A stretch of 62,839 nucleotides of DNA, taken from positions 1 through 62,839 of IMG/VR virus record IMGVR_UViG_3300044844_000500; one strand, 5' to 3'. Under the pieces are notes generated by a model. That model did not search any database, was not told the DNA's origin, and saw only the letters and a program-made list of their open reading frames with translations. The stretch's first letter is position 1, and each line of letters starts with the position of its first letter. Shown piece by piece: positions 21,867-31,004 of the stretch. The stretch is from a virus (Duplodnaviria; Caudoviricetes). The translations under genes and the position numbers were made by a program.

Positions 21867-24800
21867 TTAGAAGAGTTTGATGCCGGCTCGTTGAGCGCCA
21901 GCAGCCGTGGCCAAGCCGCCTAGCCCAATGCCCACCGCCTGCTGGAAGGGGCTGGCAGAGGGCTGGCTTGCCGCTGTGGTGGACATCTGCGAGGACGGCG
22001 CACCGCGATAGATGTCTGACAAGAACGCCGCCTGTTGGTACGGTGCGTAAACCCCTTGCATGGTATTGGCACGCTGCGCATCCAGGATCTGCTGGTTGAG
22101 CGCCTGTTGCGACTGCCCGACGTTGTACAGGAAGTTGACGTCGCCTTGTTGGAGCGCCTGTGCGGTTTGACCGAGCGCTGCCTGTTGCACACCCATCTGG
22201 CCAAGCTGCCCGCCCAACTGCCCAAGGCCCTGCGCAGTGGACTGCCCGATGCCGAACTGTTGCCCGGCCAACTGCCCGATGCCCTGTGCAATGTTCTGGA
22301 ACTGCCCAGCTTGCTGGCCATAGATGCCGGCCTGCGCCTGCCCAGCCTGGACGCGCTGCGCGCCCTGTTGCATGAGCAAGTTGGCGATGTTCTGGTTGAT
22401 CGAGGCCTCCTGCCCCGCAAGCGCGCCCTGCTGCGACGCCAGATTGCCATACTGCTGTGCGGCTTGTTGATACAGCCCGGCTGCTCCCTGCCCCAACTGC
22501 GCTTGCTGCACGCCCAACTGACCAAGGCCCTGGCCCGCTGCAATCTGCTGTTGCGAAAGGTTGCCGTAAAGCCCCGCACCCGCCTGCCCAAGCTGCGTTT
22601 GCTGCACAGCCTGCTGGCCAAGCGTCTGGCCGATGTTGGCCAATTGCCCAGCCGCTGCCTGTCCAAGCTGCGCTCTCTGGGTCTCAAACTGCCCAAGCTG
22701 CGCCCCGCCCTGAAGCCCGAGCTGCGCCCTTTGCATGGCAGTCTGTGCAGCCTGTTGCCCCAGCGCCCCTTGCGCCTGCGCTTGCTGACCGTACAAGCTG
22801 CCAATTCCTGACATCAACTGAGACTGCTGCGCGGCCTGCTGCTGTTGTGTTTGTTGCAGTTGCGCCATCTGCATGGCCGTCTGTGCATCAAACCCCGCCG
22901 CTTGGAACTGCTGTGCTGCTGCCTGCAATCCAAGCTGCGCTTGCTGGCCCGCCAGTTGGCCCGTGAGCCCCGCTTGTTGTGCCTGTAGCTGTGCTGCCTG
23001 CTGCCCAAGTCCTGCTTGCTGTGCAGCAGCACTGATCGCGCCTTGCCCGGCCTGTTGCGTCATGCCCGCTGCCGCTTGGCCCAGCCCTGCCTGCTGTGCA
23101 GCGGTCTGGGTTTGCAATTGAGCGGCCTGCGCCAGTTGCTGGGCGGCGCTCTGCCCGAGCCCTGCCTGCTGCGCGGCAATCGAAGCTTGCAGACCGGCCT
23201 GCGTGCCGAGGGCCTGTGCGCCTTGTTGTTGGAGGGTGGCCTGCTGTGCTGCCGCTGCGGTCTGGGCAGCGCCTGCTTGGCCGAACTGCTGTGCCGCCGC
23301 TTGGCCCAGCCCCGCTTGTTGCGCGGCAATTGAGGCCTGTTGCGTGCCAAGCTGGCCAATGCCTTGGGCTGCCGCTGCTTGGCGTTGCTGCTGTTGCTCA
23401 AACGCAGCCATTGATTGCGCTTGAGCTTGGCTGTAGCCCTGCGACAAAAGGTTTGCAATGGTGCTGGCCTTTTGCTCGAGCAACCCTCGCTCCATCTCCG
23501 CCCGCTGCACGCCCTCACGCGTGCCGCCAAACGCGCCTGCCCGAACCGCCTGTGCTGCCAGCCCTTGCTGCGCGATCTGCCCCTGTCGATTGATCTGGCG
23601 CATCGCCTCGTCGATCACCTGCTGTTGATAGGGGTTCATAAAAGCTTGCGCAGCAGCCGGGTTGTAGGCTTGCGCAGCCCCACCCAATCGGCCGATGCCT
23701 TGTTGGATGGCTTGTTGCGCAGCAGCAAAGCCCGGCTGACGGGCTGCTTGTGCGGCCTGTTGCGCCGCCGTGAACTGTGCGCCGACACCCTGCTGTAGCC
23801 CTGGCTGGAATGCAGCAGCTTGCGCGGCCCGCGCCGCTTCCATGCCGGTTTCTTGTGCGCGCTGAAATCCGGGCTGTGCGGCGGCTTGCTGCGCCCTTTG
23901 CGCAGCAGTCAACGCGGTTTGAATGCCTTGTTGAAACCCTGGCTGACGCGCGGCAGCGGCGGCCTGTTGCGCGCCCCCAAACAGAGCCTGCGTGCCTTGT
24001 ATAAACCCTGGCTGCATGGCCGCGCGCTGTGCCATTTGCACAGCCTGCTGACCTTGCAGCCCTGCCTGCCCAAACCCCGCCTGACGCGTGGCTTGTTGCG
24101 CCATTTCGGCAGCAGTCTGGCCTGTAGCCGTTGCCCCCAACAGCCGTTGTTGCGCTGCGGCAAAGTCAGAGGGCCCAGCACCGGCTGCTGCAAGCCCTGC
24201 CAAATCCAAATACTGGCCCTGTTGCGCGAACCCGGGTTGTTGTGCCGCTGCGGCGGCCTGCTCGGCAGCAGTTCCCGCTTGGCCAAGACTACCCAGCGTG
24301 GTCCGTCGTGCGTCACCAAAGCGTGGTGCTGCGGCTTCGAGCGCCGTAGCAGCTTGGCCCAACAGGCCCTGCGAACCAGTAAAATCGGCCCCTCCCGACA
24401 GCGCAGCCATGCGCTGGGCCTCGGATATTCCCGTGAGCCCTTGACCAATCGCGGCGGTCGCCGGTGCCAGATTCGCTTGGCTTGAGGCGGCTGCCATGTT
24501 TTGCGCAGACGCCAGCGCGCCAATGCCCGTGTCGATATCCTGTCGAGCTGTCCCAAATCGGCCCGTCGTGTCCGACGCAATCGCACGCTGCGCAGCCAGA
24601 TCCAAAAAGCCTGGGACGTACTGGCCCTCAGCGGTGGTATAGCCGGTTGCCGCTTGCAACTGCCCAAGGCCCGACGTTATGCCTGCTGTCGCACCGCCCG
24701 CCTGTTGCATGGCGAGCTGGGCGTCGGTGAACTGGTTGCGGGTATCTGCGCCACGCAGAACATCAGCAGCTTCGGCTGTCGTCCCGATCCCAGCTCCAAG

Positions 24801-25046
24801 CGCTTGATTGGCAGCCGTCATATAGGGGCTGTAGCCGCCTACGCCTTGCGCTTCTGCGGCTTGAATGGCTGCAACCTGGGCCGGAGAAAACCCGGCGATT
24901 TGATACTGCGGGAGCTGCTGGCCAAGCGGCGTTCTACCGCCTACGTTTAGCGCAAGATTCTCCGCCTCGCGCAGCAAGCGCAGCTTATAGTCCTCGATTT
25001 CCTTCGCTTCGCGGACAATCTGTTGCGTGGTGGTGATGTCTGCCAT
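21867..25046 (-). CDS. Gln/Ala/Gly-rich DNA ejection (pilot-like) protein
   Basis: 1059 aa; core FMNPYQQQVID...AGAFGGTR; 23- and 25-aa repeats; hydrophobic C-terminus. Confidence 0.75.
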   Translation of the reverse strand: MADITTTQQIVREAKEIEDYKLRLLREAENLALNVGGRTPLGQQLPQYQIAGFSPAQVAAIQAAEAQGVGGYSPYMTAANQALGAGIGTTAEAADVLRGADTRNQFTDAQLAMQQAGGATAGITSGLGQLQAATGYTTAEGQYVPGFLDLAAQRAIASDTTGRFGTARQDIDTGIGALASAQNMAAASSQANLAPATAAIGQGLTGISEAQRMAALSGGADFTGSQGLLGQAATALEAAAPRFGDARRTTLGSLGQAGTAAEQAAAAAQQPGFAQQGQYLDLAGLAAAGAGPSDFAAAQQRLLGATATGQTAAEMAQQATRQAGFGQAGLQGQQAVQMAQRAAMQPGFIQGTQALFGGAQQAAAAARQPGFQQGIQTALTAAQRAQQAAAQPGFQRAQETGMEAARAAQAAAFQPGLQQGVGAQFTAAQQAAQAARQPGFAAAQQAIQQGIGRLGGAAQAYNPAAAQAFMNPYQQQVIDEAMRQINRQGQIAQQGLAAQAVRAGAFGGTREGVQRAEMERGLLEQKASTIANLLSQGYSQAQAQSMAAFEQQQQRQAAAAQGIGQLGTQQASIAAQQAGLGQAAAQQFGQAGAAQTAAAAQQATLQQQGAQALGTQAGLQASIAAQQAGLGQSAAQQLAQAAQLQTQTAAQQAGLGQAAAGMTQQAGQGAISAAAQQAGLGQQAAQLQAQQAGLTGQLAGQQAQLGLQAAAQQFQAAGFDAQTAMQMAQLQQTQQQQAAQQSQLMSGIGSLYGQQAQAQGALGQQAAQTAMQRAQLGLQGGAQLGQFETQRAQLGQAAAGQLANIGQTLGQQAVQQTQLGQAGAGLYGNLSQQQIAAGQGLGQLGVQQAQLGQGAAGLYQQAAQQYGNLASQQGALAGQEASINQNIANLLMQQGAQRVQAGQAQAGIYGQQAGQFQNIAQGIGQLAGQQFGIGQSTAQGLGQLGGQLGQMGVQQAALGQTAQALQQGDVNFLYNVGQSQQALNQQILDAQRANTMQGVYAPYQQAAFLSDIYRGAPSSQMSTTAASQPSASPFQQAVGIGLGGLATAAGAQRAGIKLF

Positions 25047-25050
25047 GGTT

Positions 25051-27144
25051 TTACGCCTTTACAGCGCCACCTTCCAGCGCTTTCATGAGTTTGTACATGC
25101 GAGCCGCACCCTTGCGTCGACTGCCATTGCCCGCATTGCGTACCGCCTTGGCCGTGAAGACGAACTCTCCGTCAGACAGCATCGCCGGAATGGAGTCGGA
25201 CGTCCCCGTGCCAGGGCCGTTGATCGGGCCCGTTTTACGCGGGAACTCCGTCATCTTCATCTCGCCGCCGCGTGCCCGCTGTACCGGCTCTTGCCCGTAC
25301 AAGAGAGGGATGCCGTACAGGCCGGCTACGTTGTAGGGTTGCGCCACGCCTTGGGGCATGTTCGTGATGCCCGTAGGCATTGACACTGGGGCAGCCGTCT
25401 GCGCCATGCGAGCGTATGCGGGAGTTTCTACAAGAACAGGCCCACGAGGAGCTGGCCCCATCGAGCCCCTGGTCAGCCCGTATCCGTACAAATCCAGCTC
25501 TCGTTGACGGGCTTCAGCGCGTTCTCTCGATTCTTTTTCCTGCTCAGAAATCTTGTACAAGGGTTCTGGCTCGTCCGCAGGCTTCTTAAATGCCCCACCG
25601 GCCGCTGCAACACCAAGGCCGGCCCCCAACAACGGCCCGTACCGCCGCAACAACCCAGCATCCGGTGGCAGCCCAGGACGATCCGGCGAAAGATATTCGC
25701 CGTACAAGTCCTTGGCGCGTTGGATCAACCCCGGTGCCGAAGCGCCGGGCAGCGCCCCGGTGCCGATCGCCGCCTGCTGTGAGGGCGATACGGTATCCAT
25801 CCAACTCAAGTCCCCTTGAGGGGTGGTGGGCGGCGCAAACTGGCTGGGCGGCGGTGTAAAGGGCAATCCACCCGGTTCGCCAGCGGCCGGCAACATGCCT
25901 GCTGCCGTGCCGATCCGTTCGACGCCGCCGGCAGGGCCTGTCGCACCCGGAGCACCCGTTCCGGTAACTGCCGAAGCGGTGGGCGACGCAGGGATGGCAC
26001 CTTCGGCACCGGGCAGCGGCCCTGTGCCAATCGCCGCTTCCTGAGAAGCCGAGGTGACAGGCTGTTGTGGGCCTTGAAGGCCTTGCAACGCACCCGCAGT
26101 CAACCCGGCCATCGCACCCGAACGAAGTGCTTCACCCGGTTTCATGCCCATCACCAAGCCTGCGCCAGTGCCCAAAGCAGCCGTGGTCAGACCGGTGTTG
26201 AGCGCCGAACCGGCGGCTCCTGGCAAGTAGCTGCTCAAGCCCTTCAACGGGCTGCCAAGGCCTCCAAAGTCGCCGCCACCGCCGATGTAGCCTAGCGCAC
26301 CCGAGACCAGCGCATCCTTGATGTTTCCACCCGCTAATAGCGTGGTTCCAGCACCGGCAACCGCCGCCGCAGCCGGCGCGCTCATCAAGCCAAGACCCAT
26401 GGCCCCTGGTCCGAGGACCGTGGCCAACGCAACCGTAGCCAGGACTCGGCCAACCGGCGACTGAACGACCTTTTTGGCGATGTTTACAACGCTTTTGACG
26501 ACTCCGGTTACTGCCCCAACAACGCCTTTGACCAGTTTCTTGATAAAGTATTCAGGCAGCCCTGTATCGGGGTTGATCGTCCCCGATCCACCCATGCGCT
26601 TGAGCATCTGCGCCTCTTCCGGCGTGATGTGCGCAAGCATTGTGTCGCCATGTCGGCCTTTGGACGCCAGATACTGCGCCATGTCCGCTAGGCCACCCTG
26701 GGCCATGGCCATAGGAGCAACAGGCTCGGCCATTGCCGGGCCCATGGTTGCCGCTTGTTCTGCCCCTTGGATTTGACGTGATTTCAGCTCGTTGAGCACC
26801 GCAAGAACGGCGCTCAAAAACTCCATGTCAAACTCTTCGGGCAGGTCCTCTGGATCCACCCCTTCTGCGATCACCTCTTGCCGCCGTTTTTTGTACTCTC
26901 GCGGGCTTTGTAAAAGGTACTCAAAGAGCCCAATGGCGGCGTCTATCTCGTTCGGGGTAAGTTCCATCCCCTGCGAGTTGCGGTCAATCTCGGCACGCAG
27001 ATCTGTAACTGCCTGGGGATCCAACATCCCCATAGCCGTCGTTGCGGCATCATAAGCATCATAGCTGCTGACCGCCTGCGGGGCACGACCGTTGCCTTGC
27101 ATGGCTTCCATTCCGGGAAGCGACATGATGCCTTCATTTTCCAT
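25051..27144 (-). CDS. Ejection/internal virion protein with Gly-rich hydrophobic segments
   Basis: GRHGDT..TINPDTGLPEY and C-terminal GPGTGTSDSIPAMLSDGEFV modules. Confidence 0.75.
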   Translation of the reverse strand: MENEGIMSLPGMEAMQGNGRAPQAVSSYDAYDAATTAMGMLDPQAVTDLRAEIDRNSQGMELTPNEIDAAIGLFEYLLQSPREYKKRRQEVIAEGVDPEDLPEEFDMEFLSAVLAVLNELKSRQIQGAEQAATMGPAMAEPVAPMAMAQGGLADMAQYLASKGRHGDTMLAHITPEEAQMLKRMGGSGTINPDTGLPEYFIKKLVKGVVGAVTGVVKSVVNIAKKVVQSPVGRVLATVALATVLGPGAMGLGLMSAPAAAAVAGAGTTLLAGGNIKDALVSGALGYIGGGGDFGGLGSPLKGLSSYLPGAAGSALNTGLTTAALGTGAGLVMGMKPGEALRSGAMAGLTAGALQGLQGPQQPVTSASQEAAIGTGPLPGAEGAIPASPTASAVTGTGAPGATGPAGGVERIGTAAGMLPAAGEPGGLPFTPPPSQFAPPTTPQGDLSWMDTVSPSQQAAIGTGALPGASAPGLIQRAKDLYGEYLSPDRPGLPPDAGLLRRYGPLLGAGLGVAAAGGAFKKPADEPEPLYKISEQEKESRERAEARQRELDLYGYGLTRGSMGPAPRGPVLVETPAYARMAQTAAPVSMPTGITNMPQGVAQPYNVAGLYGIPLLYGQEPVQRARGGEMKMTEFPRKTGPINGPGTGTSDSIPAMLSDGEFVFTAKAVRNAGNGSRRKGAARMYKLMKALEGGAVKA

Positions 27145-27149
27145 GACAT

Positions 27150-27214
27150 TCCTTTCCTTGACTGGCCAATGGCCCTAACGAGGGCCGCGCGCCGGGAAAG
27201 GACGCGAGATTGGC
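27150..27214 (-). ncRNA. Candidate cis-regulatory 5'-UTR RNA (three-way junction with anti-SD)
   Basis: Three stems read by eye; UCCUUUCC (27195-27202) is the exact complement of SD GGAAAGGA (27150-27157). Confidence 0.55.
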
Positions 27215-27218
27215 TGAG

Positions 27219-27248
27219 ATTATCCGATAGGTCATAGGGCCCTGTCCA
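27219..27248 (-). promoter_or_regulatory. Putative promoter of ejection-protein operon
   Basis: TGGACA-18 nt-GATAAT directly upstream of the structured leader. Confidence 0.45.
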
Positions 27249-27251
27249 CTG

Positions 27252-27584
27252 TCAAGTCCGGTCAATTTCTAGGTAGGAAAGCCAGAAATCGACGTCCGCA
27301 ACGCTTGAGGTCACCTTCAAGACATCGCCCGCCTCCAAAATGCACGAAACACCCGACAACACGTCCATGGTTTGCATGGTAGGCAAAGCGTATGTCTTCA
27401 AAAGCTTGTAGTTGGTGCCACCGCCGCCAGGATAGACGGCAACCGTCAAACTGGTGACGCTAGCGTTCTCGTTGGTCACCCGCAATGACGAAATGATGGC
27501 CGCGTTTGCTGCCGGTACGGTGTAGAGCGTCGTCTCCGTGGCGGCAGAAGGCGTGAGGTATTTGCGCAGATACTTGTTGGCCAT
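27252..27584 (-). CDS. Small beta-rich tail/virion protein
   Basis: TLYTVP...LEAGDVLKV...SYLEI; tail operon. Confidence 0.75.
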   Translation of the reverse strand: MANKYLRKYLTPSAATETTLYTVPAANAAIISSLRVTNENASVTSLTVAVYPGGGGTNYKLLKTYALPTMQTMDVLSGVSCILEAGDVLKVTSSVADVDFWLSYLEIDRT

Positions 27585-27585
27585 G

Positions 27586-28299
27586 TCACATCGCCGATAT
27601 GAAGTTGATGGTGAGAATCACCGAGGAGATGGCCGGGCGTGTTGGTGTGGTGTCCGCCCCATAGTGCTCCAAGAACACGTCTGTGCTGCTCGCCCACCAC
27701 GCGATCTCCAGATAATTGACGCTTGGGTCACTAACCGTGAAGATGCCTGTGACCGTTGGAACCACATGAGACCAGGTAGTGGCGTCCTTGCGGGCGGCGA
27801 TGTCAAAGCGCGTTCGACTGTCCGGAAAATTAACGCCTGTGTCTTTGGCCCAAATTTCTACTTCTTGGGTGGCATTGCTGCGGTTGGAGACCTGTAGCCT
27901 GAAGGTCACAAGGTACTGCCCCGAGCACGGGACATAGATCTTACTGTTGTCCACCACGCGGATGCCATTGGCAGCGGCGACCACGTCGTAAGTCAAAAGC
28001 TCTTCTGTGGTCGTGCTGGTCAGGTCTTGATCCAACACAGAAAGCAACATCGCGTGCGGCAAGATGATGCCGTTAGAGAGCTGAAACCCGCGTACCCCAC
28101 CAGCAAACCCGCCGCCTGCACCGCTGCCCGCGGCCATCCAAGTGGATGCCCCAGCTTTGTCGTCGCTGGTAGTGGGCGTGTAGGTGCTATTTAGTTGCAG
28201 GATGACCTGCTCAAGTGAGCGCACCAACTGATTGAATTGTTCTGGGCTGTAGGCCGGCGTGATCGCATTCGGCAACCGAACATTGGTGATCTTGCTCAT
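27586..28299 (-). CDS. Tail-associated protein with jelly-roll/C1q-like C-terminus
   Basis: Follows nozzle gene; SKIYVPCSGQYLVTFRLQ. Confidence 0.65.
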   Translation of the reverse strand: MSKITNVRLPNAITPAYSPEQFNQLVRSLEQVILQLNSTYTPTTSDDKAGASTWMAAGSGAGGGFAGGVRGFQLSNGIILPHAMLLSVLDQDLTSTTTEELLTYDVVAAANGIRVVDNSKIYVPCSGQYLVTFRLQVSNRSNATQEVEIWAKDTGVNFPDSRTRFDIAARKDATTWSHVVPTVTGIFTVSDPSVNYLEIAWWASSTDVFLEHYGADTTPTRPAISSVILTINFISAM

Positions 28300-30146
28300 C
28301 GCAAGCCATCCGGCTGGATGTCGACCCGCATCGTGCCAAATCGCCAGTTCGTATCAATCTCGTCGCTTTCAATCCGTAGACTGATTTGACGTCCGCGTGC
28401 GCGAGTGTCGACTTTCTCCGTGCTTGAGGTAATGACGTAAGGGTCCAGCGAACTGGGCACCGCAGAGGACTGCGGGTAGGGTCTCAGCAACAGGTGAACC
28501 GTCAGATTCCCGTCTTGGTTCTTAAAGTCAGGGATGAAACGCTGCATGAACATCATCTGATCGCCATCGCCAATGTCAAAGTACCCAGACTTGATGTACG
28601 CCGTCATTGGTTGACCGTTAGCATTTTTGCCGGTTTCTTGGTTAAAGATCACAGATCTCCCTGCGGTAAGGCCATAGATGGTGGAAATGGTAGCCGCATT
28701 ACTATCCGGATCGTAGAAGCTGGCAAGTGGTCTCTCAAATACACCAGAGTCCCGCCATGCGGTTCGAGGCATCGTCCCTACAGACCAAACATTCTCCAAG
28801 TAGTTGTAGGTCACGTAGCGATCGATATAGTCATTGTCGTCGGCGCAATACCACCAAGTCACTTCGTTAAATTTGGTGTTGACACCAGCCGCTACTTTAT
28901 AGCCTTGTACGGGGTTGAACGCATCAAAGACGTAGTCCTGCACGGTGCAAGGCAGCTTCTTGGTCACCCCATCAAACACAAAGAAAGCGTCTTTGGACAT
29001 CCAGTAGGCAACACCGTTGACGTCCACCGCTGCGTGCGGTCCCACCACCCCACAGTTAGCACCCAACTGGGTGAAACCAAACGTGTAGGGCGGCCCGATA
29101 AACTGCATGCCATGCAGCGCCGTGTCGGTCCAAATTAATATCTGACCGCGAGAACGTGCTGCCGAAATGATGAGGTTGCCGTCGGTTAGACGTTGGCCGC
29201 CCGCGGTGTTTGTGGCGGTCGACTCAAAGACGTTGATGTCTTCTTGATTAGAAAACCGGACAAACATTGGATCCTGCGTAGCAGGCACACCGATGGTCCC
29301 TTCTGTCCCAAAGCAGACCAAATGCCTGTCAGGCGTTGAGACTAAGGCGAATTTGCTCTTGGTCGGAGCGCCTGCAATCGGGGTGGCTCGCGTACTTAGT
29401 CCCAACGTGGGATCCCACTCGTAAATCCCGCCATTACACAACTGCAGGATCAGTTTTTGTCCAAATTCGTCAAATTGCCAGACCCGAGAAAACAGTTGTA
29501 AGGCTGCCGTAGCTGGCCGTGCCGTTCCCCAAAAACCTAGTCCATACAGTCCCACTCCCCAACCAAAGTCAAAGAAACTGCGGTCTTGACCTACATTAAT
29601 CTGGAACGTCGCGGTGGCCGTACCAGCTGCCGTGGCGGTGGAAGTCGCATTTACGGGGCAAGTGATGACAAAAGTGTTGGCGGTCAAAACGTCAACAATT
29701 TCATACTCATTATTCAATGTTGCATTAGGAATGCCACCGGGATCCCCCGTTGTGCTGGAAAAGGTGACAAAGTCCCCAACAATGGCCCCATGTGCCGTTG
29801 CATTGACTGTCACGGTAGGCAAGTTGATCGTGGTGTCGAACGTCACCGACTTGGTCGTGCGGATTGGCGTGATATCTGCCCAATCTCCGCCGTAGTACGC
29901 ATATACCTTACGGTTAGTGCCGATTGCAGCGTAAGGAGCACCGCTTAGGGTATTCCAAGTAAAAATCTCACTGACGGATCCGACAAAGTACGTCAATCCA
30001 CCATCAAGGGGCTCCCAGCCACCGATCTTTTCAGGCAGCCCGTACTGGAAGCGTACGTGGTCGCTGTCAGTCCAGCCGCCCTCCGCCCCGTATTCGGTGT
30101 TTTGCTTGTCAATTCCAGGCTTTAAGAACAGTCGTAACAGCGGCAT
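28296..30146 (-). CDS. Tail nozzle / packaged-DNA stabilisation protein (P22 gp10 / T7 gp12-like)
   Basis: 616 aa beta-propeller-like; VRFSNQED, LIWTD, RARGRQ, WRFG. Confidence 0.8.
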   Translation of the reverse strand: MPLLRLFLKPGIDKQNTEYGAEGGWTDSDHVRFQYGLPEKIGGWEPLDGGLTYFVGSVSEIFTWNTLSGAPYAAIGTNRKVYAYYGGDWADITPIRTTKSVTFDTTINLPTVTVNATAHGAIVGDFVTFSSTTGDPGGIPNATLNNEYEIVDVLTANTFVITCPVNATSTATAAGTATATFQINVGQDRSFFDFGWGVGLYGLGFWGTARPATAALQLFSRVWQFDEFGQKLILQLCNGGIYEWDPTLGLSTRATPIAGAPTKSKFALVSTPDRHLVCFGTEGTIGVPATQDPMFVRFSNQEDINVFESTATNTAGGQRLTDGNLIISAARSRGQILIWTDTALHGMQFIGPPYTFGFTQLGANCGVVGPHAAVDVNGVAYWMSKDAFFVFDGVTKKLPCTVQDYVFDAFNPVQGYKVAAGVNTKFNEVTWWYCADDNDYIDRYVTYNYLENVWSVGTMPRTAWRDSGVFERPLASFYDPDSNAATISTIYGLTAGRSVIFNQETGKNANGQPMTAYIKSGYFDIGDGDQMMFMQRFIPDFKNQDGNLTVHLLLRPYPQSSAVPSSLDPYVITSSTEKVDTRARGRQISLRIESDEIDTNWRFGTMRVDIQPDGLR

Positions 30147-30153
30147 AGTTCAC

Positions 30154-30591
30154 CTATCGGATGGGACCGCCCACGAGCCATGCGTCGCAAGTGCGGTCAC
30201 CCGCACACTTGAAGTGGAACAGCTCGCAATAACCCAAGTTAGCAGCTTCAATGACCTCGTCCGCATAACCTTCGTGCTCTTCCGGCTCGTCATGTATGCC
30301 CTCAGCCATGCATTTCAGCATCTGAGGTGTCTGGATAAACGCTCCACAGTTTCCGCATCGCGCCTTCTTGGCCTCGCGTACCGTGGTATCCCACATGTCC
30401 GCCTTCTTCTGCCAGAAGACTCGCGACTCTGACTCCGGATTCAATGGCCCATAGCCATACTCTTTGATCGCATTGTTGCGGTTCTTTAGGTTGATATGGA
30501 TGTCAACGGTCGCAGTCGGACAAGCCCTGACCCCCTTGGCGTAGGCCTGCTTGATACCGTCAACGATTGCATCTTTTTTCACCGTAGCCAT
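30154..30591 (-). CDS. Cys-rich protein with HiPIP-like pattern
   Basis: CGNC..F...GYCELF...TCDAW. Confidence 0.7.
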   Translation of the reverse strand: MATVKKDAIVDGIKQAYAKGVRACPTATVDIHINLKNRNNAIKEYGYGPLNPESESRVFWQKKADMWDTTVREAKKARCGNCGAFIQTPQMLKCMAEGIHDEPEEHEGYADEVIEAANLGYCELFHFKCAGDRTCDAWLVGGPIR

Positions 30592-30594
30592 GAT

Positions 30595-30825
30595 TTACCT
30601 GTAGCTTGCTGTTTTCTTGGCGATCGTTTTGGGCTGTTTTACAAACTGCTTGCCCTGTGCATTGCCCTTGGCCTTCGCCCGATTGGTGGCCGCCTTCTCC
30701 CCAGGCGACAACGACTTCCACGCCGCATCCGGAAGATACCGCTTCTTGCCCTTGCTGGGCTTGCCATCAGACGTGCGCCACTTCTGCGCAGTCCAATCCT
30801 TGAGCGACTGCTGCGGGGCCTTCAT
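30595..30825 (-). CDS. Small basic protein, DUF5872-like C-half (copy 1)
   Basis: QQSLKDWTAQKWRT...RYLP...GKQFVKQP. Confidence 0.8.
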   Translation of the reverse strand: MKAPQQSLKDWTAQKWRTSDGKPSKGKKRYLPDAAWKSLSPGEKAATNRAKAKGNAQGKQFVKQPKTIAKKTASYR

Positions 30826-31004
30826 GACTTGTAGCCTCCGCCCTTCTTCTTATACTGCTGCGCCAAGAGCTGAGCTTTTCTCGCGGACCACTCGCCCGGG
30901 TCGCCACCTTTGGTCCCTGCCTTGATCTTCTGAAACAGCGCCTTGCGCATGCCCGGCTTGGTGTAGTTACCCGCTGCGTTTACTTTGGACTTGCTGGTTG
31001 CCAT
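30822..31004 (-). CDS. Small basic protein, DUF5872-like N-half (copy 1)
   Basis: NYTKPGMRK...WSARKAQLLA..YK..GGGY. Confidence 0.8.
   Translation of the reverse strand: MATSKSKVNAAGNYTKPGMRKALFQKIKAGTKGGDPGEWSARKAQLLAQQYKKKGGGYKS

Follow-up and report, generated by a model that had tools for sequence, protein, structure and literature searches.

The translational operators of phage T4 provide the phage precedent for leaders that sequester a ribosome binding site and are bound by protein. The E. coli rpsO/S15 operator and the T4 gene 32, gene 43 and RegA operators are 5′ leaders that fold in such a way as to include the ribosome binding site and to control initiation, as is predicted for the leader described here. 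In phage Mu com/mom, the start signals of a late gene are buried in mRNA structure and are opened by a small protein that binds a specific upstream hairpin. In preQ1-II and SAM-II/SAM-V, a hairpin loop base-pairs with the ribosome binding site and so turns translation OFF, an arrangement resembling the one predicted for our leader. The put RNA of phage HK022 consists of two promoter-proximal stem-loops with one unpaired nucleotide between them, and acts on RNA polymerase. To our knowledge, the cis-regulatory RNAs described for structural genes of phages are few, and hardly any come from uncultured freshwater phages. According to its main text, a 2023 catalogue of IMG/VR 3.0 intergenic regions contains 8495 'DNAVirus_N' candidates with covariation, 879 of which lie no more than 25 bp upstream of a gene whose product has known domains (PMC10690425); these candidates come from the same data source as our leader and are the same kind of object.

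We analysed a leader in a virus record (hereafter the window) that is complete at 62,839 bases. Nearly all genes of the window lie on the minus strand, a terminase and a portal are present, and the closest named relative is the lake phage DSL-LC04. The leader fills the 107-nt gap separating a 110-amino-acid ORF (27252–27584) from a 697-amino-acid ORF (25051–27144), and it stands at the head of a series of very long genes that share a strand. The upstream ORF, also on the minus strand, matched phrog_1276 (unknown function) in PHROGs and is the usual neighbour of the leader. The downstream ORF encodes a virion-module protein and is the putative regulated gene; its start codon, ATG, is at 27142–27144.

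All features of the leader were placed on the minus strand. The leader opens with a −35-like hexamer, TGGACA (27243–27248), and a −10-like hexamer, GATAAT (27219–27224); both were read off the sequence and recovered by a promoter scan, which scored this promoter-like site, with its 18-nt spacer, at 10 of 12 matches. Helix P1, based on the sequence, the alignment and a partner-swap test, pairs GCCAAU (27209–27214), which lies 5–10 nt after the −10 hexamer and inside the predicted start-site region, with AUUGGC (27165–27170). Between the two P1 strands stand two hairpins. The first, P2 (27188–27206), has the stem CGCGUC/GGCGCG (27201–27206/27188–27193) and a 7-nt loop, CUUUCCC (27194–27200), that carries the anti-ribosome-site sequence. 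After a single C (27187), which is a C in 86 of 87 aligned leaders, comes P3, GGCCCU-CGUU-AGGGCC (27171–27186; arms 27181–27186 and 27171–27176), supported by covariation. A single-stranded linker, here CAGUCAA (27158–27164) and mostly A-rich in the alignment columns, leads from P1 to the ribosome binding site GGAAAGGA (27150–27157), to which the sequence UCCUUUCC (27195–27202) is the exact complement.

An earlier sequence-only reading of this DNA had proposed the same elements, and its coordinates were all correct to the base when read on the minus strand. The exact complementarity that it described, with the ribosome binding site ending 5 nt before the ATG, was reproduced. Its further proposal of a structured leader directly after a candidate promoter was borne out, and the promoter proved to be co-conserved in homologues.

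Folding energy within the single sequence did not distinguish the leader. A 122-nt segment had a minimum free energy of −34.0 kcal/mol, compared with a mean of −37.9 kcal/mol for shuffled sequences (z = +1.0), and 174 of 200 shuffles folded as well as the window leader or better. By this measure the element is no more than chance, and single-sequence folding was dropped as evidence for it. The minimum-energy fold of the window leader pairs UCCUUUCC with GGAAAGGA. Promoter-like sites in the window showed no excess over shuffles. The evidence for a real element is instead comparative, and lies also in the contrast with the other ribosome binding sites of the phage.

We searched for the P2 hairpin in other phages. 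The P2 19-mer, with one A/G position left open, has a single copy in the window even when three mismatches are allowed, and the exact 19-mer was present in at least 120 viral contigs. All 133 occurrences examined had the same layout upstream of the same gene family, and the product of the gene that follows started with a conserved (E/Q)-G-I-M motif. The upstream ORF was 108–112 amino acids long at most loci. A covariance model of the leader found exactly one copy per locus, with 87 hits in 94 sources. Differences in leader length among homologues were not multiples of three, indicating that the region is non-coding.

Samples chosen by protein were used to avoid the circularity of motif-based searching. 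The first consisted of relatives of the upstream protein, the best 80 of 451 stretches in viral contigs and one genome contig. Among these 81 loci, the exact 19-mer was found in 60 and a single-base loop variant in 20 (CUUUUCC in 13, CUUUCCU in 6 and CUUUCCA in 1), and one locus was cut off. The second sample, the best 80 of 100 relatives of a second class of upstream protein, contained the exact 19-mer in 58 loci; the remaining 22 were a diverged subgroup B with 11 distinct sequences, a degenerate leader (L255) and one cut-off locus. A further scan for subgroup B gave 84 stretches with 44 distinct segments, comprising 12 leaders and 32 unrelated matches elsewhere, and the 12 leaders showed only three P2/loop types, all previously seen.

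Relatives of the 697-amino-acid protein were encoded by 19 viral contigs, and 12 of these carried the same leader (L002–L012 and L014). Phage DSL-LC04 (L001) also carries it, with flanking proteins that are only 57% and ~29–30% identical. Seven more distant relatives (L013 and L015–L020) have a short, unrelated leader that did not match the covariance model. An ancestral local mask in these seven was considered and dropped, as their ribosome binding sites are open at 0.36–0.53, like those of ordinary genes. In a protein scan of the genomes of 185,579 species, the canonical leader appeared on one 8.4-kb contig (L140) from a metagenome bin, which was not accepted as evidence of a host. Taken together, the comparisons indicate a real and widespread RNA element common to hundreds of uncultured lake-water phages, and conserved over an extensive lineage of uncultured freshwater phages whose genomes are ~60 kb long.

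To examine the helices, we used a model-guided alignment of 93 leaders (88 distinct rows). RNAalifold on a plain MAFFT alignment recovered only P2, since P3 was misaligned, and a covariance model was used instead. An alignment fitted to a model favours the modelled structure, but a slid control and independent per-sequence folds of P3 agreed with it. Across the 88 distinct rows, 93.7% of cells were paired, compared with 22–52% when the 3′ partners were slid by 1–3 columns. In none of 500 column shuffles were there as many double-change cells as in the alignment, or as high a covariation score; the count of double-change pairs was reached by 5 of 500 and that of further pair types by 1 of 500.

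The three helices proposed from the single sequence were upheld by these comparisons, each in its own way. P3 covaries throughout, with double-sided changes in all five modelled pairs. Its pair types were GC 54, AU 21 and GU 12 at the first pair, and further counts were GC 69 and AU 12, and CG 73, UA 6, AU 4 and GC 3; its loop ranges from 3 to 13 nt and is variable in sequence. P2 is invariant in the canonical group apart from a U-G/U-A toggle at stem pair 5 (U-G in 57 rows), and its covariation is confined to subgroup B. There the stem is CGCCUC/GAGGUG or CGCCUU/AAGGUG, with two stem pairs altered on both sides; the changes are G-C to C-G in 6 rows, C-G to U-A in 2 and G-C to G-U in 6. As G-U wobbles correspond to C-A mismatches on the opposite strand, they suggest selection for structure in the sense-strand RNA and not for a DNA palindrome.

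P1 is less regular, with 3–8 pairs, and its core GCCA/UGGC was paired in 85–88% of cells. It passed the partner-swap test: the cognate duplexes had a mean energy of −6.19 kcal/mol, compared with −4.71 kcal/mol after swapping, and none of 300 permutations was as good. Several lineages keep P1 with different sequences (GGCA/UGCC, AGCA/UGCU, UGGCCU/AGGCCA and ACAU/AUGU), and in 16 of the 80 unique leaders it was weak or missing. The junctions J1/2 and J3/1 vary in both sequence and length among the aligned leaders.

We then compared the ribosome binding sites. The motif GGAAAGG was present in all 87 aligned leaders, in which the flanking positions vary, and in all 136 further loci that had the exact P2 stem and sufficient 3′ sequence. 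The start codon lies 6 nt past it in 68 of 86 unique leaders. The coding strand of the window contains a single GGAAAGG, and the other genes of the phage have assorted AAGGAG-type sites. The 7-nt complementarity between the P2 loop and this site was intact in 101 of 112 unique leaders, and the other 11 were wobble-compatible or differed outside the helix. In seven of them, a C-to-U change in the loop gives a G-U pair; in four, the last loop base, which need not pair with the ribosome binding site, is U or A.

Thermodynamic folding, which leaves out pseudoknots, proteins and co-transcriptional folding, predicted that the 7-mer is unpaired with a median probability of only 0.003–0.008 over the 112 unique leaders and three assumed transcript forms (0.008 in the window), whereas 35 other genes whose site could be recognised gave a median of 0.535 and a minimum of 0.149, with none below 0.01. 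Sequestration of the ribosome binding site by the P2 loop, which the sequence-only reading had put forward for this one leader, is thus predicted in 112 homologous leaders and at none of the 35 other genes. The masked fold was more stable than P2 with a free site by a mean of 5.5 kcal/mol when the 5′ strand of P1 was included and 6.9 kcal/mol when it was not. The two folds, one keeping P2 with an unpaired site and the other pairing anti-site and site, are mutually exclusive, as in an ON/OFF expression platform.

The covariation seen in P1, P2 and P3 among homologous leaders did not extend to this pairing. No pair of the loop/site helix was changed on both sides, and both partners barely vary. 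Subgroup B has an uncompensated C-to-A change in the loop, accounting for 11 broken cells, and its ribosome binding site is predicted to be less occluded (unpaired probability 0.05–0.29); in L255, both loop and site are altered without compensation. We infer that loop and site pair in vivo and lower translation from the conserved complementarity and the thermodynamics, not from covariation. The pseudoknot originally proposed for the Shine–Dalgarno sequence is not supported as such: its complementarity is conserved, but compensatory changes are lacking, subgroup B is mismatched, and a nested helix that melts P2 would account for the same complementarity. The pairing may thus be either a pseudoknot with P2 intact or a nested helix formed after P2 has melted.

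The promoter hexamers were also compared across the 112 unique leaders. The −35 hexamer was TGGACA in 84, TAGACA in 22 and different in 6, and the −10 hexamer was GATAAT in 54 and CATAAT in 54. The consensus T(G/A)GACA was thus matched in 106, (G/C)ATAAT in 108 and the 18-nt spacer in 107, and the −10 hexamer lies at a fixed 12–13 nt before P2. At loci with a short gap to the upstream gene, the −35 hexamer falls within the last codons of that gene (V/I/M-D-R, in one class); where the gap is longer, there is a separate, non-coding copy of the hexamer. As the promoter is also retained where the upstream gene is a different one, we consider that it belongs to the leader. Judged by sequence, a sigma-70-type promoter is co-conserved with the leader. 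No phage RNA polymerase is annotated in DSL-LC04.

Two other explanations of the hexamers were rejected. They do not appear to be RNA elements, because the second, non-coding −35 copy is found at all loci with a longer gap. On the basis of alignment column counts, we also discarded a long-range helix that would join the '−10' sequence to the spacer preceding the AUG: the spacer varies, ATAAT is invariant, and the G/C position shows no covariation.

The positions of P1 and the promoter conflict, a complication absent from the sequence-only reading. The 5′ strand of P1 begins 1–5 nt and ends 5–10 nt past the −10 hexamer. In sigma-70 promoters, the start site is expected about 7–8 nt after the −10 hexamer, and this position corresponds to a conserved C-A in the leaders. 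Because the 5′ strand of P1 overlaps the predicted start, an RNA begun at the leader's own promoter would miss most of P1. As P1 nevertheless covaries, read-through RNA from the upstream genes would have to matter too. The combination of P1 covariation and promoter conservation makes it likely that there are two mRNA forms, differing in leader structure.

Little could be said firmly about the gene that follows. Pfam, NCBIfam, PHROGs, a search of 5.8 billion proteins and the ESM Atlas gave nothing firm on the function of the 697-amino-acid protein; neither Pfam nor NCBIfam returned a match, and tape-measure PHROGs were matched only by its C-terminal residues 616–683. It has more than 1311 relatives, and all source names among the 120 listed are 'hypothetical protein'. 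The consensus of the relatives has a long, hydrophobic middle rich in Gly and Ala. The 697-amino-acid protein is itself largely low-complexity. In DSL-LC04, its counterpart is annotated as 'tail tape measure protein', and a 'DNA transfer protein' is annotated further down. The suggestion that the product is a low-copy, membrane-toxic ejection protein is no more than plausible.

Our main reading, to which we give a probability of roughly 55%, is that the leader is a cis-acting element of translational control for a large virion-module gene, whose ribosome binding site it masks. In this model, a sigma-70-type promoter is followed by three short helices. P2 is a nearly invariant hairpin whose pyrimidine loop, (C)CUUUCC, complements the ribosome binding site GGAAAGG, and P3, one nucleotide beyond it, is a structural hairpin that is free in sequence. 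P1 would clamp P2 and P3 only in RNA begun upstream of the promoter's start site. Once transcribed, the ribosome binding site would pair with the P2 loop, in a loop-to-tail pseudoknot or in a long-range helix after P2 melts, so that the 30S subunit is held off and protein output is low or gated.

Something presumably relieves the masking, and a protein that recognises P2 would be the likeliest modulator. We favour a protein reader because the P2 stem is frozen and P3, in the same 40 nt, covaries and drifts freely; this difference hints strongly at a specific trans-acting partner, and suggests that P2 is read by one, most plausibly a protein. Such a modulator might come from the phage or the host, and might activate as Mu Com does or be an autogenous repressor; T4 gene 32 and T4 gene 43 are further phage precedents. 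A constitutive throttle, with ribosome standby on the A-rich linker, is a simpler alternative. The freezing of the P2 stem, however, is not accounted for by a plain anti-ribosome-site device.

A more elaborate version of translational masking, which we put forward only tentatively, is a switch that responds to the origin of the transcript or to the state of assembly. P1 would form only in read-through mRNA, so that translation would depend on which promoter was used, and the ribosome binding site would be opened or locked by a P2-reading protein, which may be the unassembled product. If this were true, it would mean a new phage RNA–protein regulatory pair that links synthesis of a large and perhaps membrane-active virion protein to the timing of infection or to assembly, and that is common to hundreds of uncultured freshwater phages.

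Other explanations for the leader were weighed against masking. P2, the single C and P3 might act on RNA polymerase, by put-like processive antitermination as in HK022 or by pausing or loading, so that transcription would continue along the long virion operon, with the match to the ribosome binding site secondary. The arrangement fits the put layout, with two hairpins one nucleotide apart and that nucleotide a C in 86 of 87 leaders; it stands directly after a conserved promoter and heads a run of very long same-strand genes, and a frozen P2 would suit contact with a conserved polymerase surface. We nonetheless consider this unlikely. It leaves unexplained both the invariant 7-nt match to GGAAAGG and the freezing of this site while the sites of other genes vary. 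There are also no obvious terminators to override, since positions 24000–31000 contain 3 intrinsic terminator-like sites, fewer than the 7.3 found in shuffles.

The sequence-only reading had called the leader riboswitch-like. If the three-way junction were the aptamer for a metabolite or ion, its ligand would set the masking by the P2 loop; with no match to a known family, the leader would then be a new class. The helices covary, and the junction, the loop-to-tail pairing and the mutually exclusive folds do resemble riboswitch expression platforms. A ligand-sensing riboswitch is nevertheless quite improbable, because J1/2, J3/1 and the P3 loop vary freely, and the parts that are invariant are a whole hairpin, one C and the ribosome binding site, not a pocket. 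Furthermore, P1 is missing or weak in a fifth of the unique leaders (16 of 80) and would be absent from promoter-started RNA, and the leader always precedes one family of virion-module genes with no metabolic domain.

A role in mRNA stability or processing, in which the hairpins would shield the transcript from 5′-end-dependent decay or a cleavage site would split the virion operon into segments that differ in stability, is similarly improbable. Stable, GC-rich hairpins do lie within ~6 nt of the predicted 5′ end, between genes that are likely needed in very different amounts. A protective hairpin, however, has no need of an invariant sequence or of a match to the ribosome binding site. RNase III substrates need roughly two helical turns, and helices of 4–6 bp are too short for this.

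We also considered P2 as DNA. The inverted repeat CGCGTC-N7-GRCGCG, just past the start site, could be an operator at which a dimeric regulator, from the phage or its host, represses or times the promoter; this is a typical repressor position beside a conserved promoter, the sequence itself is frozen and not merely its pairing, and a helix-turn-helix regulator is annotated in DSL-LC04. Several observations make such an operator very doubtful. The repeat is an imperfect palindrome in 57–61 rows, where the RNA has a U-G wobble, and subgroup B alters both arms in ways that keep the RNA pairing, including a G-U. The 7-nt spacer is conserved like the arms and matches the ribosome binding site, the adjoining P3 and P1 covary as RNA, and the genome has no second site even at 3 mismatches. 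The put-type, DNA-operator and stability explanations account for the frozen hairpin or for its position, but not for the conserved match to the ribosome binding site. An RNA thermometer, in which a ribosome binding site paired with a pyrimidine stretch melts with temperature, is scarcely credible and was rejected, as folding in silico keeps the site closed at temperatures between 5 and 55°C (median unpaired probability 0.001 and 0.013, respectively, in 28 of the 112 leaders, taking every fourth, with a pseudoknot-free model) and melting above that range would have no obvious use in lake-water phages.

We searched for known families that might include the leader. With Rfam 15, window positions 26800–27600 gave two hits at E-values up to 10, both outside the leader and far below the gathering score, and twelve homologous loci (56,457 bases) gave two hits at E-values up to 1, both to microRNA models and away from the leaders. 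The earlier judgement that the leader cannot be assigned to a known family thus held for the window and for its homologues. A literature search found no description of it. The main text of the 2023 catalogue does not describe this motif, and the terms 'tape measure', 'Shine-Dalgarno' and 'ribosome binding' occur in it 0 times (PMC10690425). As the motif is abundant, it may already be present, unnamed, among the candidates of that catalogue.

The leader is a candidate for a new Rfam family. It also offers a tractable system, with hundreds of natural variants of ~65 nt, a co-conserved promoter and a testable prediction of masking, and an entry point to how the dose or timing of a large virion protein is set in this abundant lineage of phages. 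Even if it were only a constitutive throttle, it would still be a clean natural example of tuning by occlusion of the ribosome binding site.

Compared with the described systems, the leader shows partial likenesses to each. It has no sequence or covariance-model similarity to the rpsO and T4 operators, which regulate ribosomal or replication proteins; here, a three-way junction is combined with loop-to-tail pairing, and the gene that follows belongs to the virion module. Unlike preQ1-II and SAM-II/SAM-V, it has no Rfam hit, no conserved pocket nucleotides and no metabolic gene context. The put RNA shares the two-hairpin layout but is not known to be linked to a ribosome binding site. A mechanism like that of Mu com/mom, to which the leader is unrelated in sequence, would account for a hairpin that is frozen in sequence next to a masked ribosome binding site. 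Set among these systems, the leader falls with those that sequester the ribosome binding site and represents a new cis-regulatory RNA motif.

Codon 7 of the gene downstream of the masked ribosome site is another AUG in the reading frame (27124-27126, minus strand). Ahead of this codon stands GAAGG(A/C)AUC, which resembles a ribosome site and is represented in the phage record by GAAGGC (27130-27135, minus strand). A further ATG was found within the first 30 nt of the gene in 109 of the 112 unique leaders, in frame every time, and its position was +18 in 85 of them. Translation could start at the second AUG instead and so bypass the masked ribosome site, or this AUG could be a mere consequence of the conserved peptide (E/Q)-G-I-M.

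At some loci the leader itself differs. In L255, a homologous locus from another contig, the leader (L255:1550-1628) has lost the top P2 pair, the loop reads CUUCCCC and the ribosome site has become AAAAAGG. This leader is a natural variant whose masking is probably weakened, and it would be useful as an experimental comparison. In L013 and L016-L020, which carry distant relatives of the 697-aa gene, a short leader of a different kind, in which a pyrimidine run adjoins AAGGAA, lies ~50 nt upstream of the homologous gene start. Masking of the ribosome site was not predicted for these loci, with a modelled unpaired probability of 0.36-0.53.

Where the gap between the leader and the upstream gene measures 26-29 nt (e.g. 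L001:10440-10470, in lake phage DSL-LC04), the final codons of the upstream gene (V/I/M-D-R) encode the -35 hexamer T(A/G)GACA. The promoter and the conserved C-terminus of the upstream protein place mutual constraints on one another. Where the gap measures 45-47 nt, an additional, non-coding copy of the -35 hexamer is present. Separately, a perfect TTGACA (27250-27255, minus strand) lies just 5′ of the TGGACA taken as the -35 hexamer and shares bases with the TGA that ends the 110-aa gene; many relatives have CTTGA(C/T) within the 18-nt spacer instead. Such a motif could be an additional promoter, or alternatively a factor site.

Searches of the 697-aa protein (gene 25051-27144), including Pfam and NCBIfam, returned no family name. 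Its blocks of note cover residues of about 160-200, 220-350 and 630-690. In the family consensus, GD-x-LAHITPxE...GG-GTINP-TGLPEF forms one invariant block, and the middle of the protein is a long hydrophobic stretch rich in Gly and Ala. A second invariant block, around DSIPAMLSDGEFVFTA at the C-terminus, is where the tape-measure PHROG matches fall. When the genomes of 185,579 species were scanned by protein search, the sole match was L140, an 8.4-kb contig (CAYQCU010000016.1) from a metagenome bin labelled uncultured Bifidobacterium. This contig bears the phage module together with a canonical leader. It appears to be a wrongly binned phage contig, and its bin label provides no host evidence for these phages.
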